Source: Thermosulfurimonas dismutans
GTDB taxonomy: Bacteria; Desulfobacterota; Thermodesulfobacteria; Thermodesulfobacteriales; Thermodesulfobacteriaceae
Assembly: GCF_001652585.1 (NCBI RefSeq)
Contig: NZ_LWLG01000014.1
Span: 1 to 32,000 of the forward strand
Length of the DNA stretch: 32,000 bases
Direction: 5' to 3'
Shown here: positions 316-31,567 of the stretch, piece by piece
How positions within the stretch are numbered: position 1 is the stretch's first letter
Layout of the letters: each line of letters opens with the position of its first letter
Made by a program: the position numbers and the translations under genes
Notes under the pieces: model-generated
The model's database searches: none
Seen by the model: the letters and a program-made list of their open reading frames with translations, nothing else
What the model was told of the DNA's origin: nothing

Positions 316-364
316 GCTCAACTCCTTTAGTTTTTAAGTGAGTTTATTATGAGAAATAAAATTG
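1..364 (-). mobile_element. Right-hand end of an insertion sequence (transposase plus about 50 nt of terminal sequence). The exact terminal inverted repeat is not determinable from one end.
   Basis: The transposase CDS starts at 315. The neighbouring NERD-like ORF terminates abruptly at 365, so the element boundary is inferred to lie between 316 and 364. Confidence 0.5.
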
Positions 365-550
365 TCAATCTGATTTTGCAAAGGTCTCAATATAATAAGC
401 AGAATCGTCTTCTCCGGAATCTCCTCTTTTAATTGCATATATTTCCCGTTCTATGAGAAATTTCTGCTTCGGAGAGAGATTGTAAGAAGACAATAATTTT
501 TTCAGTTCTTTAATATCTCTTTCTCTTGAATCACGATCTTTTATGATCAT
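365..550 (-). pseudogene. N-terminal fragment of a NERD (nuclease-related domain) protein, apparently truncated by the IS insertion
   Basis: The 61-aa ORF ends ...EREIYAIKRGDSGEDDSAYYIETFAKSD*. From memory, this matches the conserved N-terminal leader of NERD proteins (..K.G..GE.D.AYYI.....KDS..), which normally precedes the HDLR...QIDH nuclease core. The core is missing and the ORF stops at the IS junction. Confidence 0.5.
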
Positions 551-620
551 ATTTGATTATCTCTACAACCAAATTATGTATTTTTTTCTCATTTTCGAAA
601 TACGAATCTAATATCTTGCT

Positions 621-697: not shown

Positions 698-1195
698 TTA
701 GTCTGGTCTGAATTTTTCCTTTGCTGCCATTACTAGGTGACGAAGATAATCAATATATAGTTTAGCTAGATTTGGGATCGAAGTATCATTTATTTCCTGT
801 CCTAGGTGGCACTTAGGTGCATCCGGAAAATGTAAACTTACGAAACCAATATCTTGGGGAAGTTCTACATAATATTTTTCTATAGAACCATCAGGGAGTT
901 GAACTTCCCATCCGCTACCACCAAGTTTATCGCCTATGAAGAACCCTTTTGCATTTGGTGGTGGAGGACCAAAGCGGGTTAAATCTTCAGGAATTTGGAG
1001 CTGCCTTATATAGATACGGGTTGAGGTTTCTAACAATCCTTCTTTGAGTATCTTTGAACGTAATTTATAGAAATATTTCATAAGAGAATCATTTTTCATT
1101 TCTTCTCTATATTTCTCGTACCAAGCATCAAAATCTGGTTCTATAGAACGGAGATTTTGAAGAACATTAGTAACAGCACGACCAAAAACAATCAA
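698..1195 (-). CDS. Hypothetical protein with no recognisable family. The true start is probably upstream at ATG 1323 across a frameshift.
   Basis: The 165-aa ORF in the track uses a TTG start. The same frame stays open upstream to 1294 (YYKKAEETLKTAEQGLEDLIKGPPERKLSGLRN...) with no ATG or GTG. An ATG with a plausible RBS sits at 1323 in another frame. Confidence 0.55.
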   Translation of the reverse strand: MIVFGRAVTNVLQNLRSIEPDFDAWYEKYREEMKNDSLMKYFYKLRSKILKEGLLETSTRIYIRQLQIPEDLTRFGPPPPNAKGFFIGDKLGGSGWEVQLPDGSIEKYYVELPQDIGFVSLHFPDAPKCHLGQEINDTSIPNLAKLYIDYLRHLVMAAKEKFRPD

Positions 1196-1437
1196 ATTTC
1201 TTAGACCTGATAGCTTTCTTTCTGGTGGTCCTTTAATTAAATCCTCTAAACCTTGTTCTGCTGTCTTCAGTGTTTCTTCAGCCTTTTTATAATATCAGTT
1301 GTAGTATGACGAAAAACTGACATCTCTTAATCCCTTTAAATTTTTGTGATTTCGGCTAACTTATTTGTATCCGCATCATAAATGTATTCTTCATTTGCGC
1401 ATATAATTCATTCATTTCTTTCATTTGTTTCTTTTAT

Positions 1438-1534
1438 GATATAATGACAAAGCTCGGTGGCGTCTGCGAAGCGTCAGCGAAACACGCATCCACTGCAGCG
1501 ATTTGTTATGTAGTATTTTCTTCTATATTTAGGC
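1438..1534 (-). repeat. Island repeat copy A, overlapping the 3' end of the 1506..2411 ORF and the downstream spacer
   Basis: The minus-sense sequence reads GCCTAAATATAGAAGAAAATACTACATAACAAATCGCTGCAG...TTCGCAGACGCCACCGAGCTTTGTCATTATATC. The left box (GCCTAAA, CAAAT, CAG), the TTCGCAGAC box and the right box align with copies B and C. Confidence 0.55.
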
Positions 1535-2411
1535 CAAGTTTCTTGGCAATAGCTCTTACTCTTTTCTCTAATGATTCACATAACTCGGTATAATCATTAT
1601 ATTCAATTCGATTTATCGCCGCGACATCAAAGTGAACCGCAGTTCCCTTTCTTGCAAGAAGCACAACCTCTTTATTTGCTCTATGAGCCCATCCTACCTC
1701 ATAGTATACATTCGGCCTCTCTCCTGTTAAATCAGCGACAACAAATGCAGCGGATTCAATTTGAGTTAATATCTCCGCTGTAACAGTACGATTATGTTGA
1801 ATTTGATCTACTCTTACAGGCTTAAATCCAAGTTTAGTCAATGTAGGTTCTATTGCCACATAATAAGCATCTCTAAATTCGGGCTGAAAGCTCATTATGA
1901 CAAAGACATTTCTTGCAGAAACTTCATCTGGTATAGGAGTTGGAGCAAAAGGCCCTGGAAGGAAATTCTCTTTGACAGGAACAACTTGCTCTTCAGCCTT
2001 AGGCTCACCTGTTACTTCTCTATGACTTTTAGGAAACTTATCTTTTATAAGGTCGAATAGCTGTCTAGATTGTTCTCTTGTAAAATTTTGAGTCTGAAAA
2101 GTAAAAATTCTGTTCTGAGCAGTATAGCTCATGTTTATTGTTTTACGAGGATTCTCGTTAATGACAATTGATGCATTAAAACTATGAAATTCGCACTCTT
2201 CCGGGATTTGATTTATATCATTTCTAACTTGATCAATAGTTCCTGTTACTTGGATATCATCAAAAATGATGTTAACCTGAATTTGCCCTGCATTTTTCAA
2301 TAGTTCACTTGTTCGTAATTTATCTATTGCATCAATAAAAACTTGAGGTATATCCGGTAATGATTCAACAAAATACTGTCTCAGAAAACGATTTAGATTC
2401 TGTATAGGCAT
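1506..2411 (-). CDS. Two-domain protein: unknown N-terminal domain plus a C-terminal nucleoside 2-deoxyribosyltransferase-like / TIR-like Rossmannoid domain
   Basis: This is a 301-aa ORF. Its C-terminal roughly 135 aa read NVFVIMSF..(helix)..KPVRVDQ....ILTQIESAAFVVADLTGERPNVYYEVGWAHRANKEVVLLARKGTAVHFDVAAINRIEY. This fits the pattern 'F.S.SF / ..I..ad.viaDlt...pNV.yE.G.A...gK.vill......PFD....r...Y' of NDT-like/TIR-like effector domains. AGAGGAAGGAAG lies upstream of the ATG. Confidence 0.6.
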   Translation of the reverse strand: MPIQNLNRFLRQYFVESLPDIPQVFIDAIDKLRTSELLKNAGQIQVNIIFDDIQVTGTIDQVRNDINQIPEECEFHSFNASIVINENPRKTINMSYTAQNRIFTFQTQNFTREQSRQLFDLIKDKFPKSHREVTGEPKAEEQVVPVKENFLPGPFAPTPIPDEVSARNVFVIMSFQPEFRDAYYVAIEPTLTKLGFKPVRVDQIQHNRTVTAEILTQIESAAFVVADLTGERPNVYYEVGWAHRANKEVVLLARKGTAVHFDVAAINRIEYNDYTELCESLEKRVRAIAKKLGLNIEENTT

Positions 2412-2774: not shown

Positions 2775-5036
<2,262 letters not shown>

Positions 5037-5037
<1 letters not shown>

Positions 5038-6059
5038 TAGGCTTCCTCGGTGGCAGTTTCTTTGGTTGGCAGACCGGCCATTTCTCGGATGCGGGCCTCG
5101 ATTTCGTGGGCTAGTTCAGGTTTCTCCTTTAGGAGCCGTCTTACGTTTTCTCGGCCCTGTCCCAGGCGTTCACCATTATAGGAAAACCAGGAGCCGCTTT
5201 TTTCGATTAGGCCCATAGCGAGTCCCAAGTCTATGAGTTCTCCTTCCTTGGAAATGCCTTCTCCGAAAAGGATGTCGAATTCGGCTTCCCTGAAAGGGGG
5301 GGCCAGCTTGTTTTTTACCACTTTGACCCTGGTACGGTTGCCGATCTGTTCGGTTCCTTCCTTCACCTGACCTATGCGGCGGATGTCGAGCCGGAGAGTG
5401 GCGTAAAACTTTAAGGCCATGCCACCGGTGGTGGTCTCCTGTTGTCCGTAACCGAAACCTCCGATCTTCATGCGAGTCTGGTTGATGAAGATGACCGCCG
5501 TATCGGTTTTGGCAATTACGGAAGTGAGTTTGCGCATGGCCTTTGACATGAGCCGCGCCTGTAGGCCTACCTGTTGTTCGTCCATTTCACCTTCGAGTTC
5601 AGCCCTGGGCACCAAGGCCGCCACCGAATCCACCACGATGACATCTACACCTCCGCTTCGGGCTAGAACCTCCGCGATCTCCAAGGCCTGTTCACCCGTA
5701 TCCGGCTGACTGATTAAAAGGTCTTCCACGTTTACGCCTAGTTTCCTGGCGTAATGGACGTCTAAGGCATGTTCGGCATCTATGAAAGCCGCTACCCCTC
5801 CCGCTTTTTGGGCTTCGGCTACGATGTGCAGGGCCAACGTAGTCTTACCCGAGGACTCCGGGCCGTAGATTTCGGTAACTCGTCCTCTGGGTATGCCTCC
5901 TATACCGGTAGCAATGTCAACACCAAGCGAACCGGTAGAGATATTTCGGATTTCGATCTTGCGTTCGGTTTCGCCAAGGCGCATGATGGCGCCTTTGCCG
6001 AACTGGCGTTCGAGCTGTTTGATGGCCGCTTCTACGGCTTTCTTTTTGTCAAGCGACAT
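5037..6059 (-). CDS. recA: Recombinase RecA
   Basis: The 340-aa ORF has Walker [19 protein letters not shown] and the L2 region. A GGGAGGAG RBS lies upstream. Its stop overlaps the hldA start (TAATG at 5035..5039). Confidence 0.97.
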
Positions 6060-6097
6060 AAAAGAACTCCTCCCTTTGAAGGTTTCGGAAGTATTTT

Positions 6098-6125
6098 AGC
6101 ATGTTTTATAATAAGAAAACATGCT
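6098..6125. promoter_or_regulatory. Perfect palindrome AGCATGTTTT-N8-AAAACATGCT in the recA/recN divergent promoter region; candidate operator overlapping a TATAAT box and the recN start codon
   Basis: The left arm (6098..6107) is the exact reverse complement of the right arm (6116..6125). TATAAT sits at 6107..6112, and the recN ATG at 6121..6123 lies inside the right arm. Confidence 0.5.
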
Positions 6126-7728
6126 TTTGGAGTTAAGGCTCAAAAATTTTATCCTCATCGAGGAGCTTTTGCTTACCTTTGAGCCCGGTTTTACCGTTTT
6201 TACCGGTGAGACCGGGGCCGGGAAATCCCTTTTGATCAAAGCCTTGAAGCTCATCCTGGGTGAGCGCGGAGGCCCGGATTACATCCGTCCCGGTCGCAAG
6301 GAAGCCGTGGTGGAGGCCCTTATCTACGGCGGGTCTTTATTGCGGGAACGCCTTGAGGCCCTGGGGTTTGAGCCCTCGGAGGAAGTCCTCCTCAGGCGGG
6401 TGATCTCCCCAGAAAGAACCAGAGTCTATGTCAACGGCTCGCCGGCTACTCTCAAGATCCTTTCTGAACTTACTCGGGGTTTCATCGTGCTCACTGGGCA
6501 GCACGAGTTCCGATTGCTCTTCTCTCCGGATTACAGGCTTTCGGTCCTGGATGACTTCGCGGGGCTCACGGAAGAGCTTGAGGCTTATCGACGGGTCTTT
6601 TCGGAATGGAGGAAGGTCTCGGCCGAGAGGGAGAACCTGGAGAGGGAACTTTCGGAGATCGAGAGACGCCGGGATTTTCTGGATTATCAAATTCGGGAGA
6701 TAGAAGAGGCCGGCCTTTCCCCGGAGGAAGATCAGGAGCTCGTCCGGGAAAGGGAGGTTTTGCGGCACCTTTCCCGACTCAAAGGGGGACTGGAAGAAGC
6801 CGCCTTTTCTCTTGATAGGGCTGCGGAGGCCTTGGCCGAAGCCCGTGGCTTCCTTTCCGAACTCGCAAAATTTGATGCCGAACTCCAGTCTCATGCCGAA
6901 AGGCTTGAGAATCTTTATTACGAAACCGTGGAATTGGCTCGAGAGATGGCCTCCCGGAGGGCCGATCTCCCCGAAGACGACTCTCGACTTGAGGAGATCG
7001 AGGCCCGTTTGAGCCGCTTGGAGCGCCTTAAGAGGAAGTACGGAGGTACAGTGGAAGAAATTTTGCAGACTTTAGAAAGACTCCGGGCCGAACGGGAAAC
7101 CCTGGAAACCGGGGAGGAGCGACTTCAAGAACTTGTGAACCGGGAAACGGCGCTCCTCAAAGAGGTCCTTGAAAGGGCGAAATCTTTGAGCGATAGACGG
7201 CGAAAGGCCGCCGGGGTTTTGTCCGAAGAGGTTACCCAAGAGCTTTCTTCCCTGGCCCTCTCCGGAGCCGAATTCCGGGCGGAGGTCAATACCTTGCCGG
7301 CCTCTGCCGAAAGTCTTACCGCCTCCGGTCTCGATAAGGTAGAGTTCCTAGTGCGCACCAATCCCGGGACTCCGGAAAGACCACTTGAGAAGGTGGCCTC
7401 TGGAGGCGAACTTTCACGGGTTTTCCTGGCCCTGAAATGTGTCCTTTCCCGAAAGGATAGTGCCACTTGTCTCATCTTCGACGAGGTGGATACCGGGATC
7501 GGGGGGCTAACCGCGGTAAGGGTAGGGGAGAAACTTCGCGAGCTTTCCGAAAACGAGCAGGTAATCTGCATCACCCATCTTCCCCAGATCGCCAAGCTGG
7601 CGGATCACCATTTTGCAGTGGAAAAAGAGGTCTCCGGTGGTGAGACCTTTACCCGGATAAGACCTCTTTCTGAGGAAGAGAGGGAACAGGAGCTTTCGCG
7701 AATGATGGGGGTTACCTCGAATGCTTAA
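6121..7728 (+). CDS. recN: DNA repair protein RecN (SMC-like ATPase)
   Basis: The 535-aa ORF has an N-terminal Walker A GETGAGKS and a long E/R/L-rich coiled coil. Its C-terminal region has the SGGELSR signature and Walker B LIFDEVDTG. Confidence 0.93.
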   Translation: MLLELRLKNFILIEELLLTFEPGFTVFTGETGAGKSLLIKALKLILGERGGPDYIRPGRKEAVVEALIYGGSLLRERLEALGFEPSEEVLLRRVISPERTRVYVNGSPATLKILSELTRGFIVLTGQHEFRLLFSPDYRLSVLDDFAGLTEELEAYRRVFSEWRKVSAERENLERELSEIERRRDFLDYQIREIEEAGLSPEEDQELVREREVLRHLSRLKGGLEEAAFSLDRAAEALAEARGFLSELAKFDAELQSHAERLENLYYETVELAREMASRRADLPEDDSRLEEIEARLSRLERLKRKYGGTVEEILQTLERLRAERETLETGEERLQELVNRETALLKEVLERAKSLSDRRRKAAGVLSEEVTQELSSLALSGAEFRAEVNTLPASAESLTASGLDKVEFLVRTNPGTPERPLEKVASGGELSRVFLALKCVLSRKDSATCLIFDEVDTGIGGLTAVRVGEKLRELSENEQVICITHLPQIAKLADHHFAVEKEVSGGETFTRIRPLSEEEREQELSRMMGVTSNA

Positions 7729-15501: not shown

Positions 15502-16179
15502 TTATCTTTTCCCGAAAAGTAAGGTCTTTTCCTCGGTAGTTAGCCCTTCGGTAAAAGGTTCAAGGGTTGATTTGAAGACGATAGTGCTTCGTCCGGCCTC
15601 CTTAGCTTGGTAAAGTAGTTTATCCACTTCTTTTAAGAATTCCTTCGGTGTCATGCGGTAAAAGGGCCTGAAAGTAGCTCCACCTATACTAACCGAGGCT
15701 TTCACTTTACCATTCGGGGTCTGAAAGATCAAATCCTCGATGGCCTGTTTGAGGCGTTTGGCTACTTTAAGGCCACCGTAACCTCCCGTTCCCGGAAGGA
15801 TGACGGCAAACTCTTCTCCCCCGTATCGGGCAGGAAAGTCCAGTTTTCTCAAACCATTCTTGATGGTTTGGGCTACAGCCTTTAAGACCTGATCTCCGAA
15901 AACGTGTCCATAGGTATCATTGAGGCGTTTGAAATGGTCAAGATCGAGAAGGAGCAAGGTAAAAGGGGCTTGCTCTCGTTTGGATCTTTCTATGGAGGCC
16001 GATAGGGCCTCTTCGAAGCTTCGGCGATTGTAAAGACCCGTAAGATAGTCCCTGGTATATCCTTCATAAAGAGTTTGATAAGCCCTCTTTACGAGGGCGA
16101 GTTTTTCTTTGATCTCCGGAGAGGGAGCCTTCTCAAGGAGTTCTTCTAGAAGGGAAAGACCGTATTCTGGAAGATTCAT
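15502..16179 (-). CDS. Diguanylate cyclase (stand-alone GGDEF domain with an intact I-site)
   Basis: The 225-aa ORF contains LTGLYNRRSFEE, LLLLDLDHFKRLNDTYGH and the active site RYGGEEF. An RKLD motif lies five residues upstream (an RxxD I-site). The N-terminal extension is only about 45 aa. Confidence 0.9.
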   Translation of the reverse strand: MNLPEYGLSLLEELLEKAPSPEIKEKLALVKRAYQTLYEGYTRDYLTGLYNRRSFEEALSASIERSKREQAPFTLLLLDLDHFKRLNDTYGHVFGDQVLKAVAQTIKNGLRKLDFPARYGGEEFAVILPGTGGYGGLKVAKRLKQAIEDLIFQTPNGKVKASVSIGGATFRPFYRMTPKEFLKEVDKLLYQAKEAGRSTIVFKSTLEPFTEGLTTEEKTLLFGKR

Positions 16180-21836: not shown

Positions 21837-22739
21837 ATGGTTGAGGCCCAGGGCCTCACAATGCATTACGGCCCGGTGGTGGCGGTCTCGGATCTCTCCT
21901 TCAAGGTCGATAAGGGAGAGATCCTTGGTCTTCTCGGGCCTAACGGGGCCGGCAAGACCACCATCCTCAAGATACTCTCTACCCAGATCGTGCCCACCGC
22001 CGGTACCGCTCGCATAAACGGTCTGGATGTCCTTGAACAACCGGAAAGGGTGCGTTCCCAGTTTGGTTATCTCCCAGAGAATCCGCCGCTTTATAACGAC
22101 ATGGAGGTAGAGGAATATCTTTCGTTTGTGGCTGCCGCCCGGGGACTTTCCGGGACGAAGAAGGCCTCCCGGCTCGACTGGGTGATTTCCGCCTGCGGGC
22201 TCTCTTCGGTCCTGAGAAAACCCATCGGGACCCTTTCCAAGGGGTTCCGGCAGAGGGTAGGCCTGGCCCAGGCCCTGATACATGATCCCCCCGTGCTTAT
22301 CCTAGATGAGCCCACTACCGGACTTGATCCCCTTCAGATAGCAGAGATGCGAAAACTCATCCGGGAGCTTGCTCGGGATAAGGCCGTCATCTTTTCCACC
22401 CACATCCTTCAAGAGGTGGAGGCCCTGGCTGATCGAGTGTTGATTTTGAACCAGGGGCGGATGGTGGCTTGTGGTACTCAGAAGGAGATCTACCGTCTGG
22501 TTTTCCCAAAACCGGTTTACCGCGTGGTGTTCGAGGAAAGCCCCTCTTTTGAGCTGACGCGCCTCTCCGGTATCGAGGAAGTTGTTCCGCTCTCGGATAC
22601 GGAATATCGGGTGATCTTTGAGGGGGAACCCTCGGCACTTCTATGTACTCTGTGCGATAGGGGCGCCCGGGTCCGGGAATGTTTTCGGGAAGCTCTATCC
22701 CTTGAGGAGATCTTTCTACGTCTGGTGGAGGAGTCCTGA
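21837..22739 (+). CDS. ABC transporter ATP-binding protein (ABC-2 / GldA-like)
   Basis: The ORF has Walker A GPNGAGKTT, signature LSKGFRQR and Walker B LILDEPTTGLD. Confidence 0.9.
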   Translation: MVEAQGLTMHYGPVVAVSDLSFKVDKGEILGLLGPNGAGKTTILKILSTQIVPTAGTARINGLDVLEQPERVRSQFGYLPENPPLYNDMEVEEYLSFVAAARGLSGTKKASRLDWVISACGLSSVLRKPIGTLSKGFRQRVGLAQALIHDPPVLILDEPTTGLDPLQIAEMRKLIRELARDKAVIFSTHILQEVEALADRVLILNQGRMVACGTQKEIYRLVFPKPVYRVVFEESPSFELTRLSGIEEVVPLSDTEYRVIFEGEPSALLCTLCDRGARVRECFREALSLEEIFLRLVEES

Positions 22740-25141
22740 TGCGGGGCCTTTGGGTCATCTTCCACAAGGAATTTTTTGGGTACTTTCGATCCCCCATTGC
22801 TTACATCTTCGGGGTGGTTTTCCTCCTGGTGGTAAATGGGCTTTACATGAACACCTTCTTTCTGGCCCGGGTCTGCGACATGCGGGCCTTTTTCGAGCCC
22901 TTTCCGGTGATCCTTTTGGTTTTCGCTTCTGCTCTCACCATGCGTCTCTGGGCCGAGGAAAGAAAAAGCGGGACCTTGGGGCTTCTTCTGAGTTTTCCCT
23001 CTTCGCCGTTGGCCCTGATTCTCGGCAAATTCCTGGGGACCTACCTCTTTGCCCTGACCGTCCTCTCCGGCACCCTGGTTATCCCCGTAATGCTTGCGAT
23101 TCTGGGGGATCCCGACGGGGGGGCTTTGTTTTCGGCCTATGTGGGTGCGGCCCTTCTGCTGGCCTTTTACGTAGCTCTGGGGGCCTTCCTTTCGGCCCTT
23201 TTTGAAGATCAGATCGCAGCCTTCATTCTTACCTTAGTCGGCGGGCTTGCAAGCATTCTTCTTGGAACGGATCTGGTGTCTTCTTCCATTGAGAGCTGGC
23301 TTCCAGGCTTTGGAGCCTTCCTGAGGGAGTCCCTAGGGCTTCTGCCTCACTTCAACCCCTTCGTCAAAGGCGTAGTGCCTTTAAGAGATGCTCTCTTTTT
23401 TCTGATCTACACCGCCGTCTTCTTGGTTCTTAACTACTACACCGTCTTTGGTTTCCTACGCTATTTCCGACGAAGGCTATTTTATCCCCTGACTGCGGTC
23501 TTACTGGGCTTGGCCCTGGTCTCAAACGCCCTTCTAGCCCAAGTAAGGCTCCCTCGGTTTGATTTTACCGAGGAAAGACTTTACACCATCTCACCGGTGA
23601 GTAAAAAAGTCCTAGCCCGCCTCAAGGCCCCCCTTAGGGTAACTTATTATGTGTCCTCTCCCCAAACACTTCCCCCGCCTATGAGGAACTTGTCTCTTGA
23701 GGTCAGGGCCCTCCTTGAGGAGTTTGCGGCCTTTAATCCCAAATTTCGGTTTGCGGTGGTAGATCCCACCCGTAATCCTGAATTGATTCAAAAGCTACGA
23801 AACAAAGGGGTTGAGCCCTTTGCCGTTCAAACCATCGAGCGGGACAAGGTGAGTGTTAGGCGGGTCTATAGTGCCATCGCCCTCTCTTATCTTGATAAAC
23901 CCGAAGAAGTCATCCCTCAGGTGGTTCCCGAATCTCTTTCCACCTTGGAATACGACTTAGTATCTCGGATCTACAAACTTACCCTTTCGGAAAAGCCTGT
24001 GGTGGCTATCTACAGCGGACGGAATTTTCTTGCCGGAAGCTACCGCACCGCCGAAGAGATCCTGCGCTCTCTGGGATTTGAGGTCAAAGGCACTTCCATT
24101 GACAAAGACCATTCCATTCCGGAGAAGGCGCGTCTCTTGATCCTCCTCTCTCCAGGGAAACTCAACAAGCGACAGCTTTACGAAATAGGGACTTTTCTTA
24201 ATCGTGGGGGATCGGTCCTTCTGGCCCATTCGGCAGCTATTTATTCTTACAACTCCGGACCCGAGGGAGAGATGCTGGCCACCCCCATGCCCCAGGATCT
24301 TTCCGTAAACGAACTGCTAAAGACCTACGGTCTGGAGATCGAAAAGAAGACCCTCTTTGATCTCCAGAGTGTGACCATGGCTGTTTCTCAAGAGAGGGAG
24401 ATAGGGATCTTTAAGGCCCTGGTTCGCATTCCGGTGAACTTTCCCATGCAGGTCCAGATCTTGCCGCCCCAGATGAACCGGAAACTTCCCATTATTCATG
24501 GGCTTTCGGCCCTGCTTTACCTTTGGGGGAGTCCGCTGAAGCTCGATGAGAAGATCCTCGAAAAGAAGGGCTTCAAAACGCAGGTGCTTTTTACCTCCAC
24601 TTCCCACGCCTGGGCTGAAGAGGTGGACCTAGGGTCTCTCAGCGAGAGGGATATCCAGCCTCCGAAGGAGACCTCCCGACTGCCTCTGGCGGTCCTGGTG
24701 GAGGGATGGTTTCCGCTTCCCTTTGAGGGACAGGTTCCTCCCTGGCCTGGGGAAAAAGGATCTTCCCAGGCTACGAAAGAAAAGGCTTCGGAGGAAAAGA
24801 ACGAAGCGCAAGCTCGGAGCCCTCAGAGAAGTGCTAAGCCCGGGAAACTGATGGTGGTGGGCTCCGGGGCTATGTTTGCCGATGGTATCATCGATATCTT
24901 CGACAACGCCCTCTTTTTGGCCAACGCGGCCGAGGCCTTAGGTTTGGGAGGAGAACTTCTTTCTTTACGGGCTAAGCTCAAACCCGTAAGGTATATCGCC
25001 GAGGTTTCGCCTTCGGCCAAGCTCCTATGGAAGATAGTCGTGGTCTTCGGTCCGGCCATGCTGTGGATGCTCCTCGGGATGACGGTCTTTATTCGACGCA
25101 GACGTCGCCGGATGCGTTTTGAGAGAGGGGAAGGTCTATGA
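22739..25141 (+). CDS. Fusion of an ABC-2 permease (GldF-like) with a GldG-like ABC-associated domain
   Basis: The ORF is 800 aa. The N-terminal roughly 240 aa are polytopic, with EERKSGTLGLLLSFP (ABC-2 permease). The remainder begins RLPRFDFTEERLYTISPVSKKVL...LRVTYYVS, typical of GldG. It ends in a TM helix plus an RRRRRR anchor. Confidence 0.75.
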   Translation: MRGLWVIFHKEFFGYFRSPIAYIFGVVFLLVVNGLYMNTFFLARVCDMRAFFEPFPVILLVFASALTMRLWAEERKSGTLGLLLSFPSSPLALILGKFLGTYLFALTVLSGTLVIPVMLAILGDPDGGALFSAYVGAALLLAFYVALGAFLSALFEDQIAAFILTLVGGLASILLGTDLVSSSIESWLPGFGAFLRESLGLLPHFNPFVKGVVPLRDALFFLIYTAVFLVLNYYTVFGFLRYFRRRLFYPLTAVLLGLALVSNALLAQVRLPRFDFTEERLYTISPVSKKVLARLKAPLRVTYYVSSPQTLPPPMRNLSLEVRALLEEFAAFNPKFRFAVVDPTRNPELIQKLRNKGVEPFAVQTIERDKVSVRRVYSAIALSYLDKPEEVIPQVVPESLSTLEYDLVSRIYKLTLSEKPVVAIYSGRNFLAGSYRTAEEILRSLGFEVKGTSIDKDHSIPEKARLLILLSPGKLNKRQLYEIGTFLNRGGSVLLAHSAAIYSYNSGPEGEMLATPMPQDLSVNELLKTYGLEIEKKTLFDLQSVTMAVSQEREIGIFKALVRIPVNFPMQVQILPPQMNRKLPIIHGLSALLYLWGSPLKLDEKILEKKGFKTQVLFTSTSHAWAEEVDLGSLSERDIQPPKETSRLPLAVLVEGWFPLPFEGQVPPWPGEKGSSQATKEKASEEKNEAQARSPQRSAKPGKLMVVGSGAMFADGIIDIFDNALFLANAAEALGLGGELLSLRAKLKPVRYIAEVSPSAKLLWKIVVVFGPAMLWMLLGMTVFIRRRRRRMRFERGEGL

Positions 25142-26070
25142 GTTCTAGAAATCTCTTCTTTTTGACCGGACTTCTCGTGCTTCTTTTGGTGATGTACTTT
25201 GTGGCCCAGCGTACGGTGAGCCCCCCGGGGATAAAAGAGGCCCTGCTGGTTCCCCTAGGCCAGCCTGAATGGCAGAGGGTAGATCGTCTGGAGATCTTTC
25301 TGGGTTCCGAGCCGGAAAAGAAGCTCTTCTTGGTAAAAAAGAAGACCGGCTGGGAGGTCTTAGGATCTTCTCCGGAAGAAAATTATCCCCGTCCGGCCAA
25401 AAACTCTCTCATAGATAATTTTCTATCGGACCTCAGCCAACTCTCTGGTGAGGAGAGGGTTTCGGGTAAATCCTTCTGGGAGCGATTTTTACTTACCGAT
25501 GAGAAGGCCCTGCATGTGGTGGGGTGGCGGGCGGAGCAAGAAGTTTTCCATCTATTGGTGGGCAAGAGAGGTCCTTACTGGGACAGCACCTTCGTGAGGC
25601 TTAAGGATTCGGAAAAGGTCTATCTCGTTCCCGAGAATCTCCTCGCCCGCTTTGAGATCTGGAAGGAACAACCCACGACACCCTCTGTGGACCCCTGGAT
25701 AGACAAAGAAATTCTTGTGGTTAATCTGCCGGATTTAAAAAAACTGAGCTTCGTTTGGAAAGGCAAAGTCTTGTGGCGTTTGGAGAGAGAAAAAGACCGC
25801 TGGTGGGTTGAGAAGGAAGGCCGTCGCCGAGAGGTCAACGAGGTCGAGAAAAAGTTGGGAGAGGTTTTTCCGCTTTTTGCGGAAAAGGTTTTAAGGCCCG
25901 AGACTTTCCGGAAGGAAATCGGCCGTCTAGAACTTGAGACCAAACTGGCTACCAGAGAGAGCCTTTCCTTTGGAGTTTCTTCCCAAAAAGGGCGTTATTT
26001 GGCTAAAAAGGGACCTTACGTGTACGAGCTTGGATCAGAGGTCGTGGAAAAGCTCCGAAAGCTCTTTTAG
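25138..26070 (+). CDS. DUF4340-like protein (usual partner of GldG-type ABC systems)
   Basis: The 310-aa ORF has a single N-terminal TM helix, and its start overlaps the upstream gene (ATGA). Its position after gldG matches the usual DUF4340 context. The assignment rests on context and general pattern rather than a strong motif. Confidence 0.5.
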   Translation: MSSRNLFFLTGLLVLLLVMYFVAQRTVSPPGIKEALLVPLGQPEWQRVDRLEIFLGSEPEKKLFLVKKKTGWEVLGSSPEENYPRPAKNSLIDNFLSDLSQLSGEERVSGKSFWERFLLTDEKALHVVGWRAEQEVFHLLVGKRGPYWDSTFVRLKDSEKVYLVPENLLARFEIWKEQPTTPSVDPWIDKEILVVNLPDLKKLSFVWKGKVLWRLEREKDRWWVEKEGRRREVNEVEKKLGEVFPLFAEKVLRPETFRKEIGRLELETKLATRESLSFGVSSQKGRYLAKKGPYVYELGSEVVEKLRKLF

Positions 26071-28373
26071 CGCACACAGACCGCACGGATCTGTTTGAGA
26101 TCGGTATCTCCGGCAAGTACTTTAAAGATACCGTCCTGTTTCAAGGTGTACATGCCGTTTCGCATGGCGGCCTCCCGGATCTCGTGTACAGGGGCAGCCT
26201 TAACAATGAGTTCCCGCAGTTCGTCGTTGGGGATCAAGAGTTCGTGGATGGCTATCCTTCCGCGATAGCCCGTATGGTTGCAACGGCTGCATCCCACTGA
26301 CCGATAAAGGGTAGCCTGTTTGACTTCTTCTTCGGTGAGGGGTTTTAGAGGATGTTCTCCGTACTCAAAGATGAGCTCCTCGATTTCCTTATCCGTGGGA
26401 TGGTAAGGTTTCTTGCAATCTGGGCACAAGCGTTTGGCTAGTCGCTGGGCTAAGACCCCCAAAAGGGCGTCTGCAAAATTGTAAGGATCGATTCCCATGC
26501 CTAGGAGGCGAGTAACTGTTTCCGGGGCACTGTTGGTATGGAGGGTGGAGAAAACCAAGTGTCCGGTAAGCGAAGCCTCGATGAGGGTGTGGGCCGTTTC
26601 TTCGTCTCGGGTCTCACCGATCATGATGATGTCTGGGTCTGCTCGTAGGAAGGCCCTGAGCACCCTGGCAAAGGTCAACCCGATTTTGGGTTTTACCTGG
26701 ACCTGTCTCAGCCCCTCTTGCACGATTTCTACCGGATCTTCAGCGGTCCAGATTTTCTTGTTGGGCCGATTAATATAGTGAAGGGCGGCGTGCAGGGTGG
26801 TGGTTTTACCGGATCCGGTAGGTCCTACTACTAAGATCAGGCCGTAGGGCATTTCCAGCAACTTCTTGAATTGTTCCATGACCTCCGGCCGGAGACCTAT
26901 TTCCTCAAGGGTTCGGGCCTGGACTCCTCCCAGGATCCGCATGACCACGTCTTCGTTGTTTTCGATGGTAGGCAGAGTGGCCACTCGGACCTCAAAGACC
27001 TTCCCTGTCCGGGTACGGAACTTGATCTTTCCATCCTGAGGAAGTCGTTTTTCGGCAATGTCTAGCCCGGCCATAATCTTGTAACGGGAAATAAGTGGTC
27101 TTTTCAAAGAATAAGGGACCATTTGGAAGGGAATGCATTCCCCGTCTATGCGAAACCTTATCTGTGCTCCCCGCCGCCCTGTGAGACTTTCGATGTGGAT
27201 ATCGGAGGCCCCGCGATTATAGGCCTCTTCAAGGATATAGTTGGCCAACTGGACCACCACACTTTCCTGATCCTCTGGAAGGGGCTCTTCTTCTTCGTGA
27301 GCCTCTTCTTCCTCAATGAGCTCTAACTCAGGGGCTTCTGGCGGCTGAAATGTAAGCTTTCCATAATAGAGATCGATTAGTTTTAAAATATCTTCTCTTA
27401 TGCCTACTGCGACTTCAAATTCTTTCAAATTTAGAATCTTTTTGGCCTGTTCGATTTGATCCAGATTAAAAGGATCTTCCGTAAGGAGGAAGATTTTTCC
27501 TTCTTCCTCCAGCGGAGCGATCAAAGTTTGACGAAGAAAGTTTTCCTTGACGCCTTCCAGGCACTTAGGTTTTATTACGATCTTATCGTCTGATATTTCT
27601 ATAAACGGACAGTTGTAGAACCTGGATAGGGCTTCTCCAATTTTATCTTTAGAAATGTGGAATTTCTCTATGAGTACGCTTTCTATACTGCTATTAGTTT
27701 CCTTGGCTATTTCTGCCGCTTCCTGACAAATAGAAGGAGTAATTATTCGCTCTTTAAGGAGAAATTTTAATCTTCTACAATTGGTAGTAATATTTTTTAA
27801 ATATTCTATCTTTTCTTGAATGGTATCCTTTTCTTCTACTTCATTGGCCAATTGAATATATAATCTTAGAGCTTCATCAAATTCGTAGGCCTTCTCAAGG
27901 TATTCCGCTAACAATTTTTTGAGATTTAATATATCTAATTTATTTTCTGCCGTCGCCGGGATTTCTTTTAAAGCCTGCCTTATAATATGGGCAGCCCTTT
28001 CAAATTGTCCTATATTTCCTAGACATTCAGCCAAATTTTTGTATACCTCTAAAGTTTTAAAGCCCTCTTCCAATAATTCTTCCAGAATTTTAATGGCCTG
28101 TTGGTAAAAGGCTCCATCTTTTAAAATCAAAGCTTTTTTGAGTCGTTCTTCCTGTGGGGTCTCCTCCAAAACCTCCTCGGAAACTATGCCTTTGAAGGCC
28201 TCTAGTTCGAAGATCCTTTTCTGGATCTCTTTTTTGAGTTCGTCTTGCTCTTCTGAAACCAGATTCTTAAGTTCACGGTATAGTTCTAGAGCTTCATCCA
28301 CTAGCCCCTGCTTGGCATATAGCTCAGCCTCTTTTAATTTGTTTTCTATGTAGGCTTTGATATCAGTATCCAT
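26067..28373 (-). CDS. PilB/GspE-class secretion ATPase with an N-terminal TPR-like extension and a T2SSE_N-like domain
   Basis: The ORF is 768 aa. The C-terminal core has GASDIHIE, Walker A GPTGSGKTTT, the Asp/His boxes and the tetracysteine CPDC...CSRC, which is typical of assembly ATPases (PilB/GspE) and not of PilT. Residues 1 to about 200 form about four TPR-like helix pairs (e.g. AELYAKQGLVDEALELYRELKNL and VYKNLAECLGNIGQFERAAHIIRQALKE). Residues about 205-290 resemble a GspE N-terminal domain (...IEKFHISKDKIGEALSRFYNCPFIEI). An acidic linker EEEEAHEEEEPLPEDQE follows. Confidence 0.85.
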   Translation of the reverse strand: MDTDIKAYIENKLKEAELYAKQGLVDEALELYRELKNLVSEEQDELKKEIQKRIFELEAFKGIVSEEVLEETPQEERLKKALILKDGAFYQQAIKILEELLEEGFKTLEVYKNLAECLGNIGQFERAAHIIRQALKEIPATAENKLDILNLKKLLAEYLEKAYEFDEALRLYIQLANEVEEKDTIQEKIEYLKNITTNCRRLKFLLKERIITPSICQEAAEIAKETNSSIESVLIEKFHISKDKIGEALSRFYNCPFIEISDDKIVIKPKCLEGVKENFLRQTLIAPLEEEGKIFLLTEDPFNLDQIEQAKKILNLKEFEVAVGIREDILKLIDLYYGKLTFQPPEAPELELIEEEEAHEEEEPLPEDQESVVVQLANYILEEAYNRGASDIHIESLTGRRGAQIRFRIDGECIPFQMVPYSLKRPLISRYKIMAGLDIAEKRLPQDGKIKFRTRTGKVFEVRVATLPTIENNEDVVMRILGGVQARTLEEIGLRPEVMEQFKKLLEMPYGLILVVGPTGSGKTTTLHAALHYINRPNKKIWTAEDPVEIVQEGLRQVQVKPKIGLTFARVLRAFLRADPDIIMIGETRDEETAHTLIEASLTGHLVFSTLHTNSAPETVTRLLGMGIDPYNFADALLGVLAQRLAKRLCPDCKKPYHPTDKEIEELIFEYGEHPLKPLTEEEVKQATLYRSVGCSRCNHTGYRGRIAIHELLIPNDELRELIVKAAPVHEIREAAMRNGMYTLKQDGIFKVLAGDTDLKQIRAVCVR

Positions 28374-28381
28374 CTTTTAGC

Positions 28382-29605
28382 CTATTTCCATTTGGTTATA
28401 GAAAAAAGAAAAACTTCTTCTCCTTCTATTAGAGCCTTTCCTATAAAAGGTTCTTTTGCGGACCTCCAGATCGTATTCGGGTCAACATTAATTAGTTTAT
28501 AGTCTTCCACTAAGACGACTAACCCTTTGTCGTTTTTCCATAATATTACTAATTTCTTTTCGCTGGTTAATGACTTGTTGGTTTTTATTCTTAGTTTTTT
28601 GAGTTCATGTTCTTCTTTTTCAGCCAGCTCACCTTGTAATTTAGGTTTTATTTTTCCAAAGAGCTGTTTGAGGAATCCTTTGCCTCTTAAAAGTTTTAAT
28701 GGGAATTGTCCCTCATGTAAATAAGGACGCCACCAATCTTCTATATCACTGGCGAAGGCAACTTCATCTATAGGTATTAGTATGGTCTTATTCAGAGTTT
28801 TGCAGAGGAGTCCCTCGTTTGCTTCTATTTTGATTTGACTTTTGGTTGTTTCTTCTTTTTGCTTGATAAACTCTTTTATCTCTTTTTCTCTTTCTCTTAG
28901 TTGTTTTTCGTAATCCTTGTTTAAAATTAATAGTGTTTTTTCTATTTCGTATTTGCTTTTTGTTAGCAACTTTTTTATAGCTCCTTTTTTGTTTCGGTCT
29001 AAAAGTTCTTCGATAGCTACTAATCTCTGATAATCTTTTAATAGTTGATTGATAAGAAGGTCGATCTTTGTTTGGTGTTCCCCTTTGGGAGATTCCTTGT
29101 GTGAAAAATCTTTAATAATTTCTTCAAGCTTACTCTGTTCTATTACTTCTTTTTCAATTTTAGCCTTGAACTCCTTTAGATCTTTTTCGATATCTTTGCC
29201 TTCAAAATTATAGGCATAAATAATGTTGCCTAATTGTTTCAAGTGATCTAATTTTTCCGGAGTAAGATTTGCGGGATGTTTAACCTCTTTCAAATAGGCT
29301 TCAAGGAGAGAGATGAGTTCTTGATTAGTGGCATCTAAAGATTGGGTCTTTAGTTTTTGGCATTTTTTAAGGGCCTTTTCGCTTATTTCTGGGACGATTT
29401 CCCACTCAAGAGTTAGGATTTCCCCTATCAGTTCTTCTAGATCCTTTTTGAGAGCTTCTTCTTCTCCCTCGGCAATAGGTTCGAGTAGCGAATAGGTTTC
29501 TATTTCTTCTTCTTTTAACTCCGTCTTTTTGGCTTCCTTAAATATTTTATCTAAGGCCTTTTCCACTTCTAATTCTAGATCTTGTATGTTTTCTTTTTCG
29601 CTCAT
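28382..29605 (-). CDS. Coiled-coil protein (K/E-rich) with a C-terminal globular domain of unknown family
   Basis: The 407-aa ORF has an AGGAG RBS (AGGAGAAAATAATG). Residues 1 to about 265 are heptad-like and K/E/L-rich. Residues about 265-407 switch to a beta-rich pattern (TILIPIDEVAF...KLLRGKG...KKLVILWKNDKGLVVLVEDYKLINVDP...FIGKALIEGEEVFLFSI). Its stop lies 8 nt before the ATPase start. Confidence 0.7.
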   Translation of the reverse strand: MSEKENIQDLELEVEKALDKIFKEAKKTELKEEEIETYSLLEPIAEGEEEALKKDLEELIGEILTLEWEIVPEISEKALKKCQKLKTQSLDATNQELISLLEAYLKEVKHPANLTPEKLDHLKQLGNIIYAYNFEGKDIEKDLKEFKAKIEKEVIEQSKLEEIIKDFSHKESPKGEHQTKIDLLINQLLKDYQRLVAIEELLDRNKKGAIKKLLTKSKYEIEKTLLILNKDYEKQLREREKEIKEFIKQKEETTKSQIKIEANEGLLCKTLNKTILIPIDEVAFASDIEDWWRPYLHEGQFPLKLLRGKGFLKQLFGKIKPKLQGELAEKEEHELKKLRIKTNKSLTSEKKLVILWKNDKGLVVLVEDYKLINVDPNTIWRSAKEPFIGKALIEGEEVFLFSITKWK

Positions 29606-29702
29606 TATTTTCTCCTAGGCAAACTATGCGATTTTGGTTTACGTCTCCGTTGGGGCTTTACCCCAAACCCCATGATTTTATCGCCCCAATTTTATCTTTA
29701 AC

Positions 29703-29734
29703 CCGAATTGAGCGTTCAGAATCGCTCAATTCGG
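29703..29734 (-). terminator. Perfect 12-bp hairpin immediately after the mglA stop (attenuator, stabiliser or partial terminator; no clear U-tract)
   Basis: CCGAATTGAGCG (29703..29714) pairs with CGCTCAATTCGG (29723..29734) around an 8-nt loop. A second hairpin, TTGGGG/CCCCAA, lies at 29650..29666, upstream of the next gene's RBS. Confidence 0.4.
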
Positions 29735-29735
29735 C

Positions 29736-30353
29736 CTAGTCACTATATTTAAGATATTTTTGGACTATATATCTTATACTCATTTTACTTATGGTTTTTA
29801 GGGTTTCAAAAACACCTATGCCTTTGGGAGCCACAGCTTCAAAGTAAGGGGCCTTGAGTTCCCGATTTAGATCTTCTTGTAATTCTTCTATGGTAAGAAT
29901 GGGGATACCTATTTCTCCGAGATCCCTTTTGTTATACTGAAAAACCAGGGGTATCTCATGAATATCTATGTTCCATTCTAAAAGATGTTCCTTTAGATCT
30001 TCAAGACTCTCCTTATTTTTCTCTCGGCGTATGCGAAGGGAATCTGCCACAAAGACTATGCCATCGACTCCTTTCAAAACGATCTTTCGGGCATACTTAT
30101 AGAGAGATTGCCCGGGAACAGTATAAAGCTGTAACCGGATATCTAGATCTTTTATTTTGCCCAGGCTTAGGGGTAAAAGATCAAAGAAGAGTGTTCTTTC
30201 TCCCTTGGTTTCAATGGTTAGAAGTTTCCCCCTAAATTTTTCCGGGAGAGAATTATATATGTAGAGAAGATTAGTGGTTTTCCCTGATCTTCCCGGACCA
30301 TAGTAAACTATTTTGCAGTATATTTCCTTTTTCTTGAGATCGATTAAGGCCAT
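29736..30353 (-). CDS. mglA: MglA-type Ras-like small GTPase
   Basis: The 205-aa ORF is collinear with Myxococcus MglA: KIVYYGPGRSGKTTNLLYIY (P-loop), GERTLFFDLLPLSLG (intrinsic Arg), LYTVPGQ (catalytic Gln), LKGVDGIVFVADS, QYNKRDL and AVAPKGIGVFETLK. Confidence 0.93.
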   Translation of the reverse strand: MALIDLKKKEIYCKIVYYGPGRSGKTTNLLYIYNSLPEKFRGKLLTIETKGERTLFFDLLPLSLGKIKDLDIRLQLYTVPGQSLYKYARKIVLKGVDGIVFVADSLRIRREKNKESLEDLKEHLLEWNIDIHEIPLVFQYNKRDLGEIGIPILTIEELQEDLNRELKAPYFEAVAPKGIGVFETLKTISKMSIRYIVQKYLKYSD

Positions 30354-30737
30354 TTATAATTCCTGGATTTGTTTGGCTAGTTGATTAGCTTTTAGACGTA
30401 CTAGCCCCAAAGGTACTTCGTCTGTAAATACTGTAACTAGAATTATATCGTCATTAATTTTGCTCAAGTGTATATTATCTTTTTTGCCCTTGTGATACAG
30501 AATGCTGAAATCGTCCTCGCCTAGAATTCTGGCGATCTGATTAGTAGCTCCGAAATTGGCAGCCGCCAGGGCCGCTAAAGAAGTGACATCTACATCTGCA
30601 TTTTTACCACTTGAGACTAAGATGTTTCCAGCTTCGTCTATCAAAAGAGCCAAGTTTACTCCAATGCTTAGTAAGTAGTTGCGAAGTAGTTTTTCTAGCC
30701 TAGACACCTTTTCTGGTGTGAGAACACGTATACCCAT
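30354..30737 (-). CDS. mglB: MglB-type Roadblock/LC7 domain protein (the cognate GAP of MglA)
   Basis: The 127-aa ORF contains LLIDEAGNILVSSG...VDVTSLAALAAANFGATNQIARILGEDDF...ILVTVFTDEVPLGLVRLKANQLAKQI. This parallels M. xanthus MglB (FLVDKNGQLISSAG...TTSLASLTAGNVAA...LGLVRLRIKKA). Its stop abuts the mglA start (TAAATG). Confidence 0.88.
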   Translation of the reverse strand: MGIRVLTPEKVSRLEKLLRNYLLSIGVNLALLIDEAGNILVSSGKNADVDVTSLAALAAANFGATNQIARILGEDDFSILYHKGKKDNIHLSKINDDIILVTVFTDEVPLGLVRLKANQLAKQIQEL

Positions 30738-31567
30738 TAGTAGACCTCTTATCCATTTAACACTTATCAGGATAATATGGATAATAGGAAAAAATCAAGT
30801 CCTTATTTTTCTATAGGAAAGGCGGTTAATGGTATGTAAGCTTTGAATTTGATGGAAAAACTTTCCTAAGCTTATGCATATTGGATGTTAATATGCCGGC
30901 CATGGATGCTTTAATCCTACTAAAAAACTTATGCTTAGGAAGCCGCTGCCCATCTTGAACACCCATTAATGGGGCGCTAAACACTAGATATTCGTGACCT
31001 AGAAATACCAAGTTTTTCAGCAGTTATTTGATGCCTGCCTTTTAATGACCCCCTGAATACGAAAAGCCGCGGTGAATCGGGTCTTGGTGATAAAAATGGG
31101 CGAGGCCTCTGGGCTATTCCTTTTACGCTATCGTAGAAGTTAAAGAAAGTTCTCCCGGACCGTCTTACCAAAGGTGAGGGAGAATAGTTATACAACTTCA
31201 AAGGAGAATCCATTAAAGTTGTGGTCCTTGACCCAAAGATTCTATAAGCCTCTCCTGTTGTTTGTTTGGAAGGCCGAGTTAGGGGGATGGCCTTTGGGGA
31301 GCTCCTTGGACAACAGGAGGCCTCTCTCAGGCCTTTCATGGAAAGCCTCAGAAGCTATAGTCCTTTTTTCGGACCGCCCAGGCTTTCTGGAAGGGACAAT
31401 AGTTTCGCCTTGGATTACATGATTTTCGAAAAGCTGACTTTTTTGTCAGGAAAAATCCTCGTAAAAGAAAGGTGGAAAAAGAAGCCTAGGGATTTAATTG
31501 CTTCTTAGATGAGCTTTTAAAATAGCTTTTTCTTCATTTAACCCTCTTTAATCCTCAAAAATTTTCC

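Follow-up and report, generated by a model that had tools for sequence, protein, structure and literature searches.

A conserved operon of Desulfobacterota genetically links MglA and MglB to a PilB/GspE-class ATPase with a fused TPR-like domain

In Myxococcus xanthus, the GTP-bound form of the small GTPase MglA acts through the tetratricopeptide repeat (TPR) protein SgmX to place PilB, the ATPase for extension of type IV pili (PMC7519303, PMC7668184, PMC11580455). In Synechocystis, regulators with PATAN domains bind PilB1 (bioRxiv 10.1101/2021.06.11.447907), and MglA and its partner MglB (together, MglAB) have been linked to PATAN proteins by gene neighborhood (PMC4316618). Type IV pilus systems have been reported in every deltaproteobacterial genome surveyed, and an evolutionary analysis predicted that MglAB initially joined a chemosensory system for the regulation of pili (both PMC4546325). 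Here we describe a four-gene operon from Thermosulfurimonas dismutans, on the minus strand at 26067..30737 of a 32,000-nucleotide stretch of DNA (positions 1 to 32,000 of contig NZ_LWLG01000014.1; we call this whole stretch the window). The operon encodes MglB, MglA, a family-specific protein that we call X, and a PilB/GspE-class ATPase with a TPR-like N-terminal domain. Judged by gene order, it is conserved across sulfate-reducing Desulfobacterota. We lean towards the view that it is functional, has been conserved by vertical descent, and couples the MglA/MglB switch to a dedicated hexameric ATPase of the PilB/GspE class, which carries a fused TPR domain of the effector type.

All four open reading frames are intact: mglB (30737..30354, 127 amino acids), mglA (30353..29736, 205 amino acids), X (29605..28382, 407 amino acids), and the ATPase gene (28373..26067, 768 amino acids). 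The stop codon of mglB immediately adjoins the ATG of mglA (TAAATG), a structured spacer of 130 nucleotides (nt) lies between mglA and X (29606..29735), and just 8 nt separate X from the ATPase gene (28374..28381). An earlier reading of this DNA, made from the sequence alone (the sequence-only reading), had pointed out the four tightly packed genes on one strand, and our gene boundaries, junction, and intervals match it exactly. Its core idea was that MglA and MglB are genetically wired to a TPR-bearing ATPase of the PilB/GspE class, and conserved synteny strongly supports this.

The same gene order (Roadblock protein, MglA, X, and an ATPase with TPR, MshEN, and T2SSE domains) is found in Thermosulfurimonas marina and in two metagenome-assembled genomes (MAGs) from the Thermodesulfobacteria. 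Starting independently from the ATPase, we found the same order in Thermodesulfatator indicus, two MAGs labelled 'Deltaproteobacteria', Dissulfurimicrobium hydrothermale, and one further metagenome contig. The conserved order spans 50-98% identity of the ATPase, and the mglB-mglA tandem is present in all of the close relatives. The ATPase family itself comprises more than 115 clusters, with proteins of 764-832 amino acids that align over 98-100% of the query and are 48-98% identical to it. A look-up of the exact sequence of the window's ATPase gave no record. (This is with the full-length protein as the query. The N-terminal 263 amino acids on their own gave no homologs because the word index of the search fails on this low-complexity region.)

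We also scanned species-representative genomes with a full-length alignment of the ATPase and scored the resulting loci with our own profiles for MglA, MglB, X, and the TPR domain. The scan returned mostly generic PilB because the patterns lay in the ATPase core, so the PilB loci served as a control set. Among the loci that have a TPR-type ATPase and at least the adjacent upstream gene, mglA was within 7 kb in 16 of 16. ATPases of 40-42% identity from Desulfobacterales, Desulfatiglandales, and Desulfonatronovibrionaceae (loci L011, L012, L013, L015, and L037) also have mglA adjacent or within 7 kb. Of about 70 control loci, whose PilB lacks a match to the TPR profile, just 1 has mglBA. This locus is from Smithella (L019): its ATPase (3968..6292) has a GAF domain at the N-terminal position of the TPR, and nearby genes encode MglB, MglA, an X-like protein, a PATAN protein, and a response regulator. 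A GAF domain also takes the place of the TPR on the same ATPase scaffold in a MAG of Deltaproteobacteria (L016, 5451..7781). Among ATPases that lack the TPR profile, these two are the nearest relatives. A neighborhood survey of this kind had been proposed in the sequence-only reading, which had also raised chance adjacency as an alternative; the recurrence of the order in relatives and the difference between the TPR-type loci and the controls speak against chance.

Rearranged versions of the parts are informative as well. A TPR gene of its own lies directly upstream of a pilB of normal length in Riflebacteria and Ozemobacter, where pilC and pilin genes follow, and in one MAG an MglA-like domain is fused to X (described below). 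These split and fused ('Rosetta-stone') arrangements link TPR with PilB, and MglA with X.

MglA aligns along its whole length with the MglA of M. xanthus (residues 1-193; PDB 6HJH, E = 1.3e-60) and with that of Thermus thermophilus (3T12, E = 5.5e-55). Its translation contains the P-loop GPGRSGKT, the motif GERTLFFD (with Arg53 and the switch-I residue Thr54), and the motif TVPGQ (with Gln82), and these align with the corresponding residues of the M. xanthus protein. This bears out the earlier claim that the P-loop, the intrinsic arginine, and the catalytic glutamine are retained. By these motifs, MglA is a Ras-like small GTPase of the group-1 type with the features of a functional switch, and we predict that it binds GTP and that its hydrolysis of GTP is stimulated by MglB. 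MglB, the predicted GTPase-activating partner, was recognized as a Roadblock protein from the start; it matches Robl_LC7 in Pfam (45.4 bits, where the cutoff is 23; E = 6.7e-12) and the MglB of M. xanthus (6H5B chain B, E = 2.5e-18). It does not reach the cutoff of the NCBIfam equivalog for MglB (NF052242, 62.3 bits against 200), a model that is built on the Thermus type.

In the ATPase, residues 1-207 (27753..28373) form the predicted TPR-like helical-repeat domain, residues ~213-339 (27357..27737) form an N1 domain of the MshEN/GspE_N type, and residues 367-768 (26067..27275) form the N2 domain and the C-terminal PilB/GspE-class core. Between the last two lies a disordered acidic linker (residues 341-365). 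The core matches T2SSE from Pfam with 401 bits. It has Walker A (GPTGSGKT, residues 517-524), Asp box, Walker B, and His box motifs, which are invariant in 43 homologs, as are the four cysteines C650, C653, C695, and C698. The Walker A and tetracysteine motifs had also been picked out in the sequence-only reading. The tetracysteine motif binds zinc and sets assembly ATPases apart from retraction ATPases. When we compared the protein to known structures with Foldseek, the first match was PilF from T. thermophilus (5OIU, E = 4e-38, 46% identity, template modeling (TM) score 0.86), and PilB from Geobacter (5TSH and 5ZFR) came next. Over these PilF and PilB structures, E is about 1e-37, identity is 44-46%, and the TM score is up to 0.87; GspE/EpsE rank close behind. 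Residues 203-766 span the NCBIfam model of PilB (TIGR02538) from one end to the other (positions 4-562 of 564). By these comparisons the protein is an assembly ATPase of the PilB/GspE class that forms its own subfamily and has an additional TPR-like module.

The evidence for the TPR-like module comes from structure prediction and from homologs. In the AlphaFold model of the ATPase, which was built from an alignment of 43 sequences and has a predicted local distance difference test score (pLDDT) of 79.6, the N-terminal region has helices at residues 3-21, 25-38, 44-60, 73-86, 90-102, 108-120, 124-137, 142-161, 165-176, and 182-207 (pLDDT 83-93). That is, three helices are followed by a disordered loop (residues 61-72) and then by seven more helices, and the ten helices form antiparallel pairs that are broken by this one loop. 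The same model places the MshEN domain at residues 213-336, and the linker at residues 341-365 has pLDDT below 50. The N-termini of homologs match TPR_16, TPR_19, and TPR_12 with E ≤ 1e-5, and a profile of the N-terminal region matches canonical TPR proteins (for example, the TPR gene of L076, with E = 7e-14).

The MshEN domain is clear in Pfam (46 bits, E = 4.3e-12), and its motif for binding cyclic di-GMP (c-di-GMP) is degenerate: the NCBIfam model of this motif gives 18.6 bits, below its cutoff of 38. Reading the alignment by eye, the family consensus lacks the Arg, Gly, and Gln positions (RLG/G/Q) of the MshEN motif RLGxx(L)(L)xxG(L)(I)xxxxLxxxLxxQ. We considered canonical binding of c-di-GMP by this domain and rejected it, as the motif is degenerate and below the cutoff. 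The degenerate motif, together with the TPR or GAF module, points to input from a protein or another ligand instead.

X has no match in Pfam or NCBIfam and no sequence match in PDB. It belongs to an unannotated protein family that current databases leave as 'hypothetical': we found 9 close homologs among 5.8 billion clusters, and an exhaustive HMMER search gave 12 representatives. The AlphaFold model of X (from an alignment of 10 sequences; mean pLDDT 79) has a helical N-terminal half and two disordered acidic linkers. Helices are confined to the N-terminal ~250 residues, with long helices at residues 140-254, and the C-terminal domain (residues ~258-407) is beta-rich with pLDDT near 90. In a Foldseek search of PDB, the best 18 matches for X were without exception CheW or CheA P5 domains (E = 1e-4 to 7e-3, TM scores of 0.50-0.57 on the target, probability 1.0). 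We predict that the C-terminal 150 residues (28385..28834) form a CheW-like domain. The sequence-only reading had described the third gene as encoding a coiled-coil scaffold, which fits the helical N-terminal part but not the C-terminal domain.

The N-terminal region of X, with the motifs 'xDxIF/LF' and 'L-x-[LI]-[ED]-W-E', is conserved more widely than the rest of the protein. This region is kept in distant X-like proteins that do not have the CheW-like domain (L013 and L019). We also considered whether the N-terminus of X might be a three-helix bundle like that of RomX; structural similarity to RomX (8ZNA) was not supported.

In one MAG (locus L004), the protein P0009 (8001..9860) joins an MglA-like domain to X in a natural fusion. 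The MglA-like domain is 54% identical to the window's MglA over its full length (E = 7e-64). It has replacements at all three of the residues mentioned above: Arg53 is replaced by Lys, Thr54 by Pro, and Gln82 by Thr. There is no mglB upstream, and the next gene after the fusion is the TPR ATPase. The MglA-like domain of P0009 looks like a hydrolysis-dead version that does not depend on a GTPase-activating protein (GAP) and that is permanently wired to X. (A gene for a PilJ-type chemoreceptor lies 5 kb upstream of the fusion.)

Most relatives carry a chemosensory (che) arm that is divergent from the cassette. The genes of this arm encode CheA, a CheY-like protein, an HDOD-HD protein, two or three proteins of the receiver::CheB-like type, and a protein in which PATAN is joined to a receiver or to a CheB-like domain. 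Where the locus is more distant, genes for PATAN and HAMP proteins separate mglBA from the ATPase gene, and downstream there is a PilZ protein with a nucleotide cyclase (L013) or a receiver-PAS protein. The composition of the upstream arms of L007, L008, and L092 is unusual for a Che cluster: they have two or three receivers fused to a CheB-methylesterase-like domain, a PATAN::CheB-like fusion, and an HDOD-HD protein, and their flanks show no chemoreceptor, no CheR, and no CheW as a protein of its own.

In the window, the interval between mglB and dsrA is 910 bp and contains no intact open reading frame, only fragments (30804..31475, plus strand). Using tblastn with the che proteins of relatives, we found a fragment of a receiver domain that is split over two frames (30804..30955), with matches to amino acids 50-77 of a response regulator (64% identity, E = 5e-6) and to amino acids 37-79 of a CheB-type regulator. 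We also found a fragment of the P5 domain of CheA (31098..31475; amino acids 446-565 of 574, 41% identity, E = 9e-20). On the evidence of these alignments, the fragments are the remains of the che arm that is intact in related genomes, and the arm has been deleted here. The sequence-only reading had called the cassette 'self-contained', which does not hold for the relatives with a divergent che arm; the window keeps pseudogene fragments of it.

The four genes have nevertheless been maintained. We compared them to an independent assembly that is 96% identical (L090), and both lineages carry the deletion of the che arm. The ratio of nonsynonymous to synonymous divergence (dN/dS) was 0.36 for mglB, 0.12 for mglA, 0.24 for X, and 0.10 for the ATPase gene, or 0.08 for the ATPase core (residues 367-768). 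Because all four genes have dN/dS of 0.10-0.36, the operon is maintained, with purifying selection. (In L090, the position of the mglB start codon is ATT instead of ATG, and the gene, at 221..604, was called 28 codons shorter.)

The composition of the operon is uneven. The GC content at third codon positions (GC3) breaks near 27290: it is 0.27-0.45 in mglB, mglA, X, and codons 1-360 of the ATPase gene, and 0.57-0.67 in codons 361-768 and in all of the flanking genes. Relatives show a weaker trend in the same direction. A chimeric assembly does not explain the break, as two independent assemblies share the gene and the junctions, and synonymous divergence is similar on both sides.

The spacer between mglA and X is highly structured, with a predicted folding energy of the RNA of -46.4 kcal/mol (z = -4.6). 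Immediately 3' of the mglA stop codon lies a hairpin with 12 bp of perfect pairing and a loop of 8 nt (29703..29734), which is followed by a second hairpin (GGGG/CCCC) and then by the ribosome-binding site AGGAG. The first hairpin had been raised as a possible terminator in the sequence-only reading. It lacks a U-tract, was not called in our terminator prediction, and is missing from the near-identical relative: a 40-nt block with the hairpin (29700..29740) is absent in L090. This rules out a terminator. The spacers between mglA and X in other relatives are 3-22 nt long, or the genes overlap. By these alignments, the hairpin is a lineage-specific insertion, as opposed to a conserved element of regulation. 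Within the 3' end of mglA, a site that resembles a promoter (29809..29782) is no stronger than expected by chance.

The 20-odd other genes in the window are housekeeping genes, according to Pfam: they include riboflavin genes and genes for enolase, RecA, RecN, RecJ, MurJ, and NusB, as well as for a protein with GGDEF and an ABC transporter of the GldG-like type. Scans of the window for Rfam families and for tRNAs gave no matches. The ABC transporter genes (21837..26070, plus strand) encode an ATPase, an 800-amino-acid fusion of an ABC-2 permease to a GldG-like domain, and a DUF4340 protein, and they are convergent with the ATPase gene of the cassette; the stop codons on the DUF4340 side and of the cassette's ATPase gene overlap by 4 nt. 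This neighbor is kept in the Thermosulfurimonas clade and is not found beside the cassette in Thermodesulfatator or in more distant genomes. On the other side, dsrA (dissimilatory sulfite reductase alpha) starts at 31648 and runs through 32000 (plus strand). It is in the same place in relatives, and the neighborhood of the dsrAB cassette is conserved among the Thermodesulfobacteria, the group to which it assigns the window. The GGDEF protein is a stand-alone diguanylate cyclase of 225 amino acids, encoded beside murJ (15502..16179, minus strand), with no evident link to the cassette. Near the left end of the window, which is low in GC, open reading frames of 165 and 301 amino acids (698..2411, minus strand) have no match in Pfam. 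The longer one has a GC3 of 0.23, and the segment may be another foreign or fast-evolving one.

How the proteins contact each other, which way regulation runs, and which machine is powered we infer as follows. MglA-GTP would bind the TPR-like N-terminus of the ATPase, the helical N-terminal domain of X, or both. Once MglA-GTP has docked, the ATPase would be recruited to, or activated at, the cytoplasmic base of a type IV filament machine (a type IV pilus or a machine like the type II secretion system) that is encoded elsewhere, and MglB would stimulate GTP hydrolysis and so switch the system off. X would be an adaptor: its N-terminal domain would work with MglA, and its CheW-like domain would ancestrally have tied the module to the neighboring arm with CheA and PATAN response regulators. 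After the deletion of that arm, the switch in T. dismutans would run without che input or with input that is encoded elsewhere. The fusion of the TPR to a PilB-class protein, the fusion of MglA to X, and the single operon across the phylum argue for a direct action of the TPR on the ATPase and for a complex that also includes the GTPase. More specifically, and more tentatively, the cassette might be a compact circuit of an ancestral type that corresponds to Frz, MglAB, and the type IV pilus, in which a chemosensory arm would feed the GTPase switch, MglA-GTP would directly license the PilB hexamer through the TPR effector domain built into it, and X, as a new class of MglA partner, would bridge the GTPase and arrays of the CheA/CheW type.

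A number of observations weigh against our main reading. In M. xanthus, SgmX localizes PilB "by an unknown mechanism", and direct contact between SgmX and PilB was not detected (PMC11580455). The sequence-only reading had a TPR fused to the ATPase, and helix-pair repeats are indeed predicted across the N-terminal 207 amino acids, but the scores of the window's own protein for TPR models are all sub-threshold (the best is TPR_12, with 26.6 bits against a cutoff of 30.1, E = 7e-6). Of the profiles that it had proposed, Robl_LC7 matched above its cutoff, and T2SSE also matched. For X, no CheW family from Pfam matches at E ≤ 0.01, and hhalign of X against the CheA P5 domains of related loci gave probabilities below 1% (one of the four templates was the wrong end of a partial CheA). 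Because these sequence-level tests were negative, the CheW-like assignment is by predicted fold only. MglB was not detected in L015 and L037 (the contig of L012 starts inside mglA, so we make no call there), and X was not detected beside the ATPase in L012, L015, or L037. The missing X bears on another explanation as well, which is that MglA chiefly acts via X on a CheA array, to assemble, position, or gate it, and that the TPR of the ATPase binds some other partner, such as PATAN regulators, PilM/PilC, or a polar landmark, so that the operon links two outputs. The tightest link is indeed between MglA and X, which are fused in L004, and not between MglA and the ATPase. Also, X has the predicted CheW-like domain, genes for CheA, PATAN response regulators, and CheB-like proteins flank the cassette in most relatives, and PATAN domains were reported to bind PilB1 (bioRxiv 10.1101/2021.06.11.447907). 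On the other hand, mglA is directly beside the TPR ATPase in the three loci without a detectable X, the X-like proteins of L013 and L019 lack the CheW-like domain, and all four genes are still under purifying selection after the loss of the che arm. Overall, we consider this explanation rather unlikely.

Another question is what the ATPase powers. It might not power a pilus or secretion filament at all, if it is a stand-alone hexamer under polar regulation, or it might serve a type II secretion system or another filament that is not for motility, and then the analogy to S-motility in Myxococcus would be misleading. Cultured Thermosulfurimonas and Thermodesulfatator are flagellated swimmers, according to their species descriptions. 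As the sequence-only reading had noted for the window, Pfam annotation finds no genes for T2SSF/PilC, PilMNOPQ, secretin, or pilin in the rest of it, and most of the related loci also lack platform, secretin, or pilin genes. The scores for the equivalog models of PilB and GspE are nearly equal, and both are below their cutoffs (TIGR02538, 500.8 against 675.65; TIGR02533, 478.6 against 630.25); the GspE structures also rank close to those of PilB. Just one locus ties the cassette directly to a filament machine at the genomic level: in the metagenome lineage L091 (11426..20364), the cassette is convergent with a cluster of secretin, PilO, PilM-N, and pseudopilin genes. That cluster encodes a GspE-like ATPase of its own (503 amino acids), and its secretin has an N0 domain of the GspD type. 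Because of this other ATPase, the TPR ATPase may be a second paralog that is specialized or regulatory. These points are set against the 44-46% identity of the core to bona fide PilB and PilF, a zinc motif and MshEN domain that are typical of filament assembly ATPases, the split loci with TPR, pilB, pilC, and pilin genes, and the occurrence of type IV pili in all of the deltaproteobacterial genomes surveyed (PMC4546325). A role outside of type IV pili strikes us as about as improbable as an output through X and the array. Finally, the four genes might be adjacent by chance, or they might be a relic that is decaying after the loss of its chemosensory partner. The reduction of the che arm to fragments, the unusually low GC3 of the segment, and the lineage-specific palindrome inserted between mglA and X would fit with this. 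Yet the order is kept down to 50% identity of the ATPase and the linkage to mglA down to 40%, the four reading frames and all of the catalytic motifs are intact, dN/dS is 0.10-0.36 between two lineages that share the deletion, and two independent metagenome assemblies have the identical arrangement. Chance or decay is largely refuted, and we give it hardly any weight. We continue to favor a coupling of the MglA/MglB switch to the TPR-bearing ATPase.

If MglA-GTP does license the PilB-class hexamer directly, this would be the first direct control of a type IV filament motor by a small GTPase, and the operon would provide a thermostable minimal system for studying how TPR effectors act on PilB. 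The step from MglA and SgmX to PilB that is still to be explained in Myxococcus becomes a testable problem with four proteins, and proteins from thermophiles are well suited to structural work. Because the step from MglA to PilB is reduced to four proteins, the operon should be of interest to those who study bacterial polarity and pili. The locus also fits the prediction that MglAB joined a chemosensory system to regulate pili (PMC4546325). Natural rewiring is on show as well: the che arm was lost here, a GAF domain replaces the TPR in Smithella, and one MAG has a fused, catalytically dead MglA without a GAP.

In full-text searches of the literature, we did not find a description of a TPR-fused PilB, of an operon of mglB, mglA, X, and an ATPase gene, or of X; nor did we find anything useful on type IV pili in Thermosulfurimonas or Thermodesulfatator. 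Public annotations of the proteins are 'tetratricopeptide repeat protein', 'ATPase, T2SS/T4P/T4SS family', and 'hypothetical'. The sequence-only reading had not recognized the arrangement as a described system, and these searches agree with it. The component parts are all of known kinds, and their combination (the operon, the TPR fusion, and X) looks undescribed.

The closest described system is the pathway from MglA/MglB through SgmX to PilB in M. xanthus, which operates with unipolar type IVa pili under the control of Frz. Both have MglA of the group-1 type (with the Arg finger and the Gln) and a Roadblock GAP encoded in tandem, the TPR protein of M. xanthus stands between the GTPase and an extension ATPase of the PilB class as the predicted TPR-like module would here, and both have an ancestral association with a chemosensory system based on CheA. 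In M. xanthus, the TPR module is a separate protein with 14 TPRs and the genes are dispersed; here it is ~200 residues with roughly 5 helix pairs, it is fused to the ATPase, and the genes form one operon. RomR/RomX, FrzS, and SopA were not seen at the locus. It has X instead, an unrelated protein with a helical part and a predicted CheW-like part. The window's MglB is also without the C-terminal extension that its M. xanthus counterpart has. In Bdellovibrio bacteriovorus, the hub of MglA, Bd2492, and RomR similarly ties MglA to a TPR protein and to the function of type IV pili at one pole, but MglB is absent, the TPR protein stands on its own, and there is no fusion to an ATPase and no operon (PMC3983030).

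Two other comparisons concern the ATPase and its regulators. The control of MshE, PilB2, and FimX-PilZ-PilB by c-di-GMP is similar in that the window's ATPase has an N1 domain of the MshEN type, and L013 has a PilZ protein and a nucleotide cyclase downstream. In contrast to those systems, the c-di-GMP motif of the window's ATPase is degenerate, and the additional module is a TPR (or a GAF domain in the Smithella relatives). In the cyanobacterial Tax and Pix systems, PATAN response regulators bind PilB1 (bioRxiv 10.1101/2021.06.11.447907; PMC11181946). Relatives of our locus likewise have genes for CheA and PATAN response regulators beside that of a PilB-class ATPase with a GspE_N/MshEN N-terminus. 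The Tax and Pix systems do not have MglA, MglB, or the TPR fusion, and in the window the arm with PATAN and CheA has been deleted. At the level of gene content, a single locus in these relatives recovers both the published link between MglAB and PATAN (PMC4316618) and the published link between PATAN and PilB (bioRxiv 10.1101/2021.06.11.447907).

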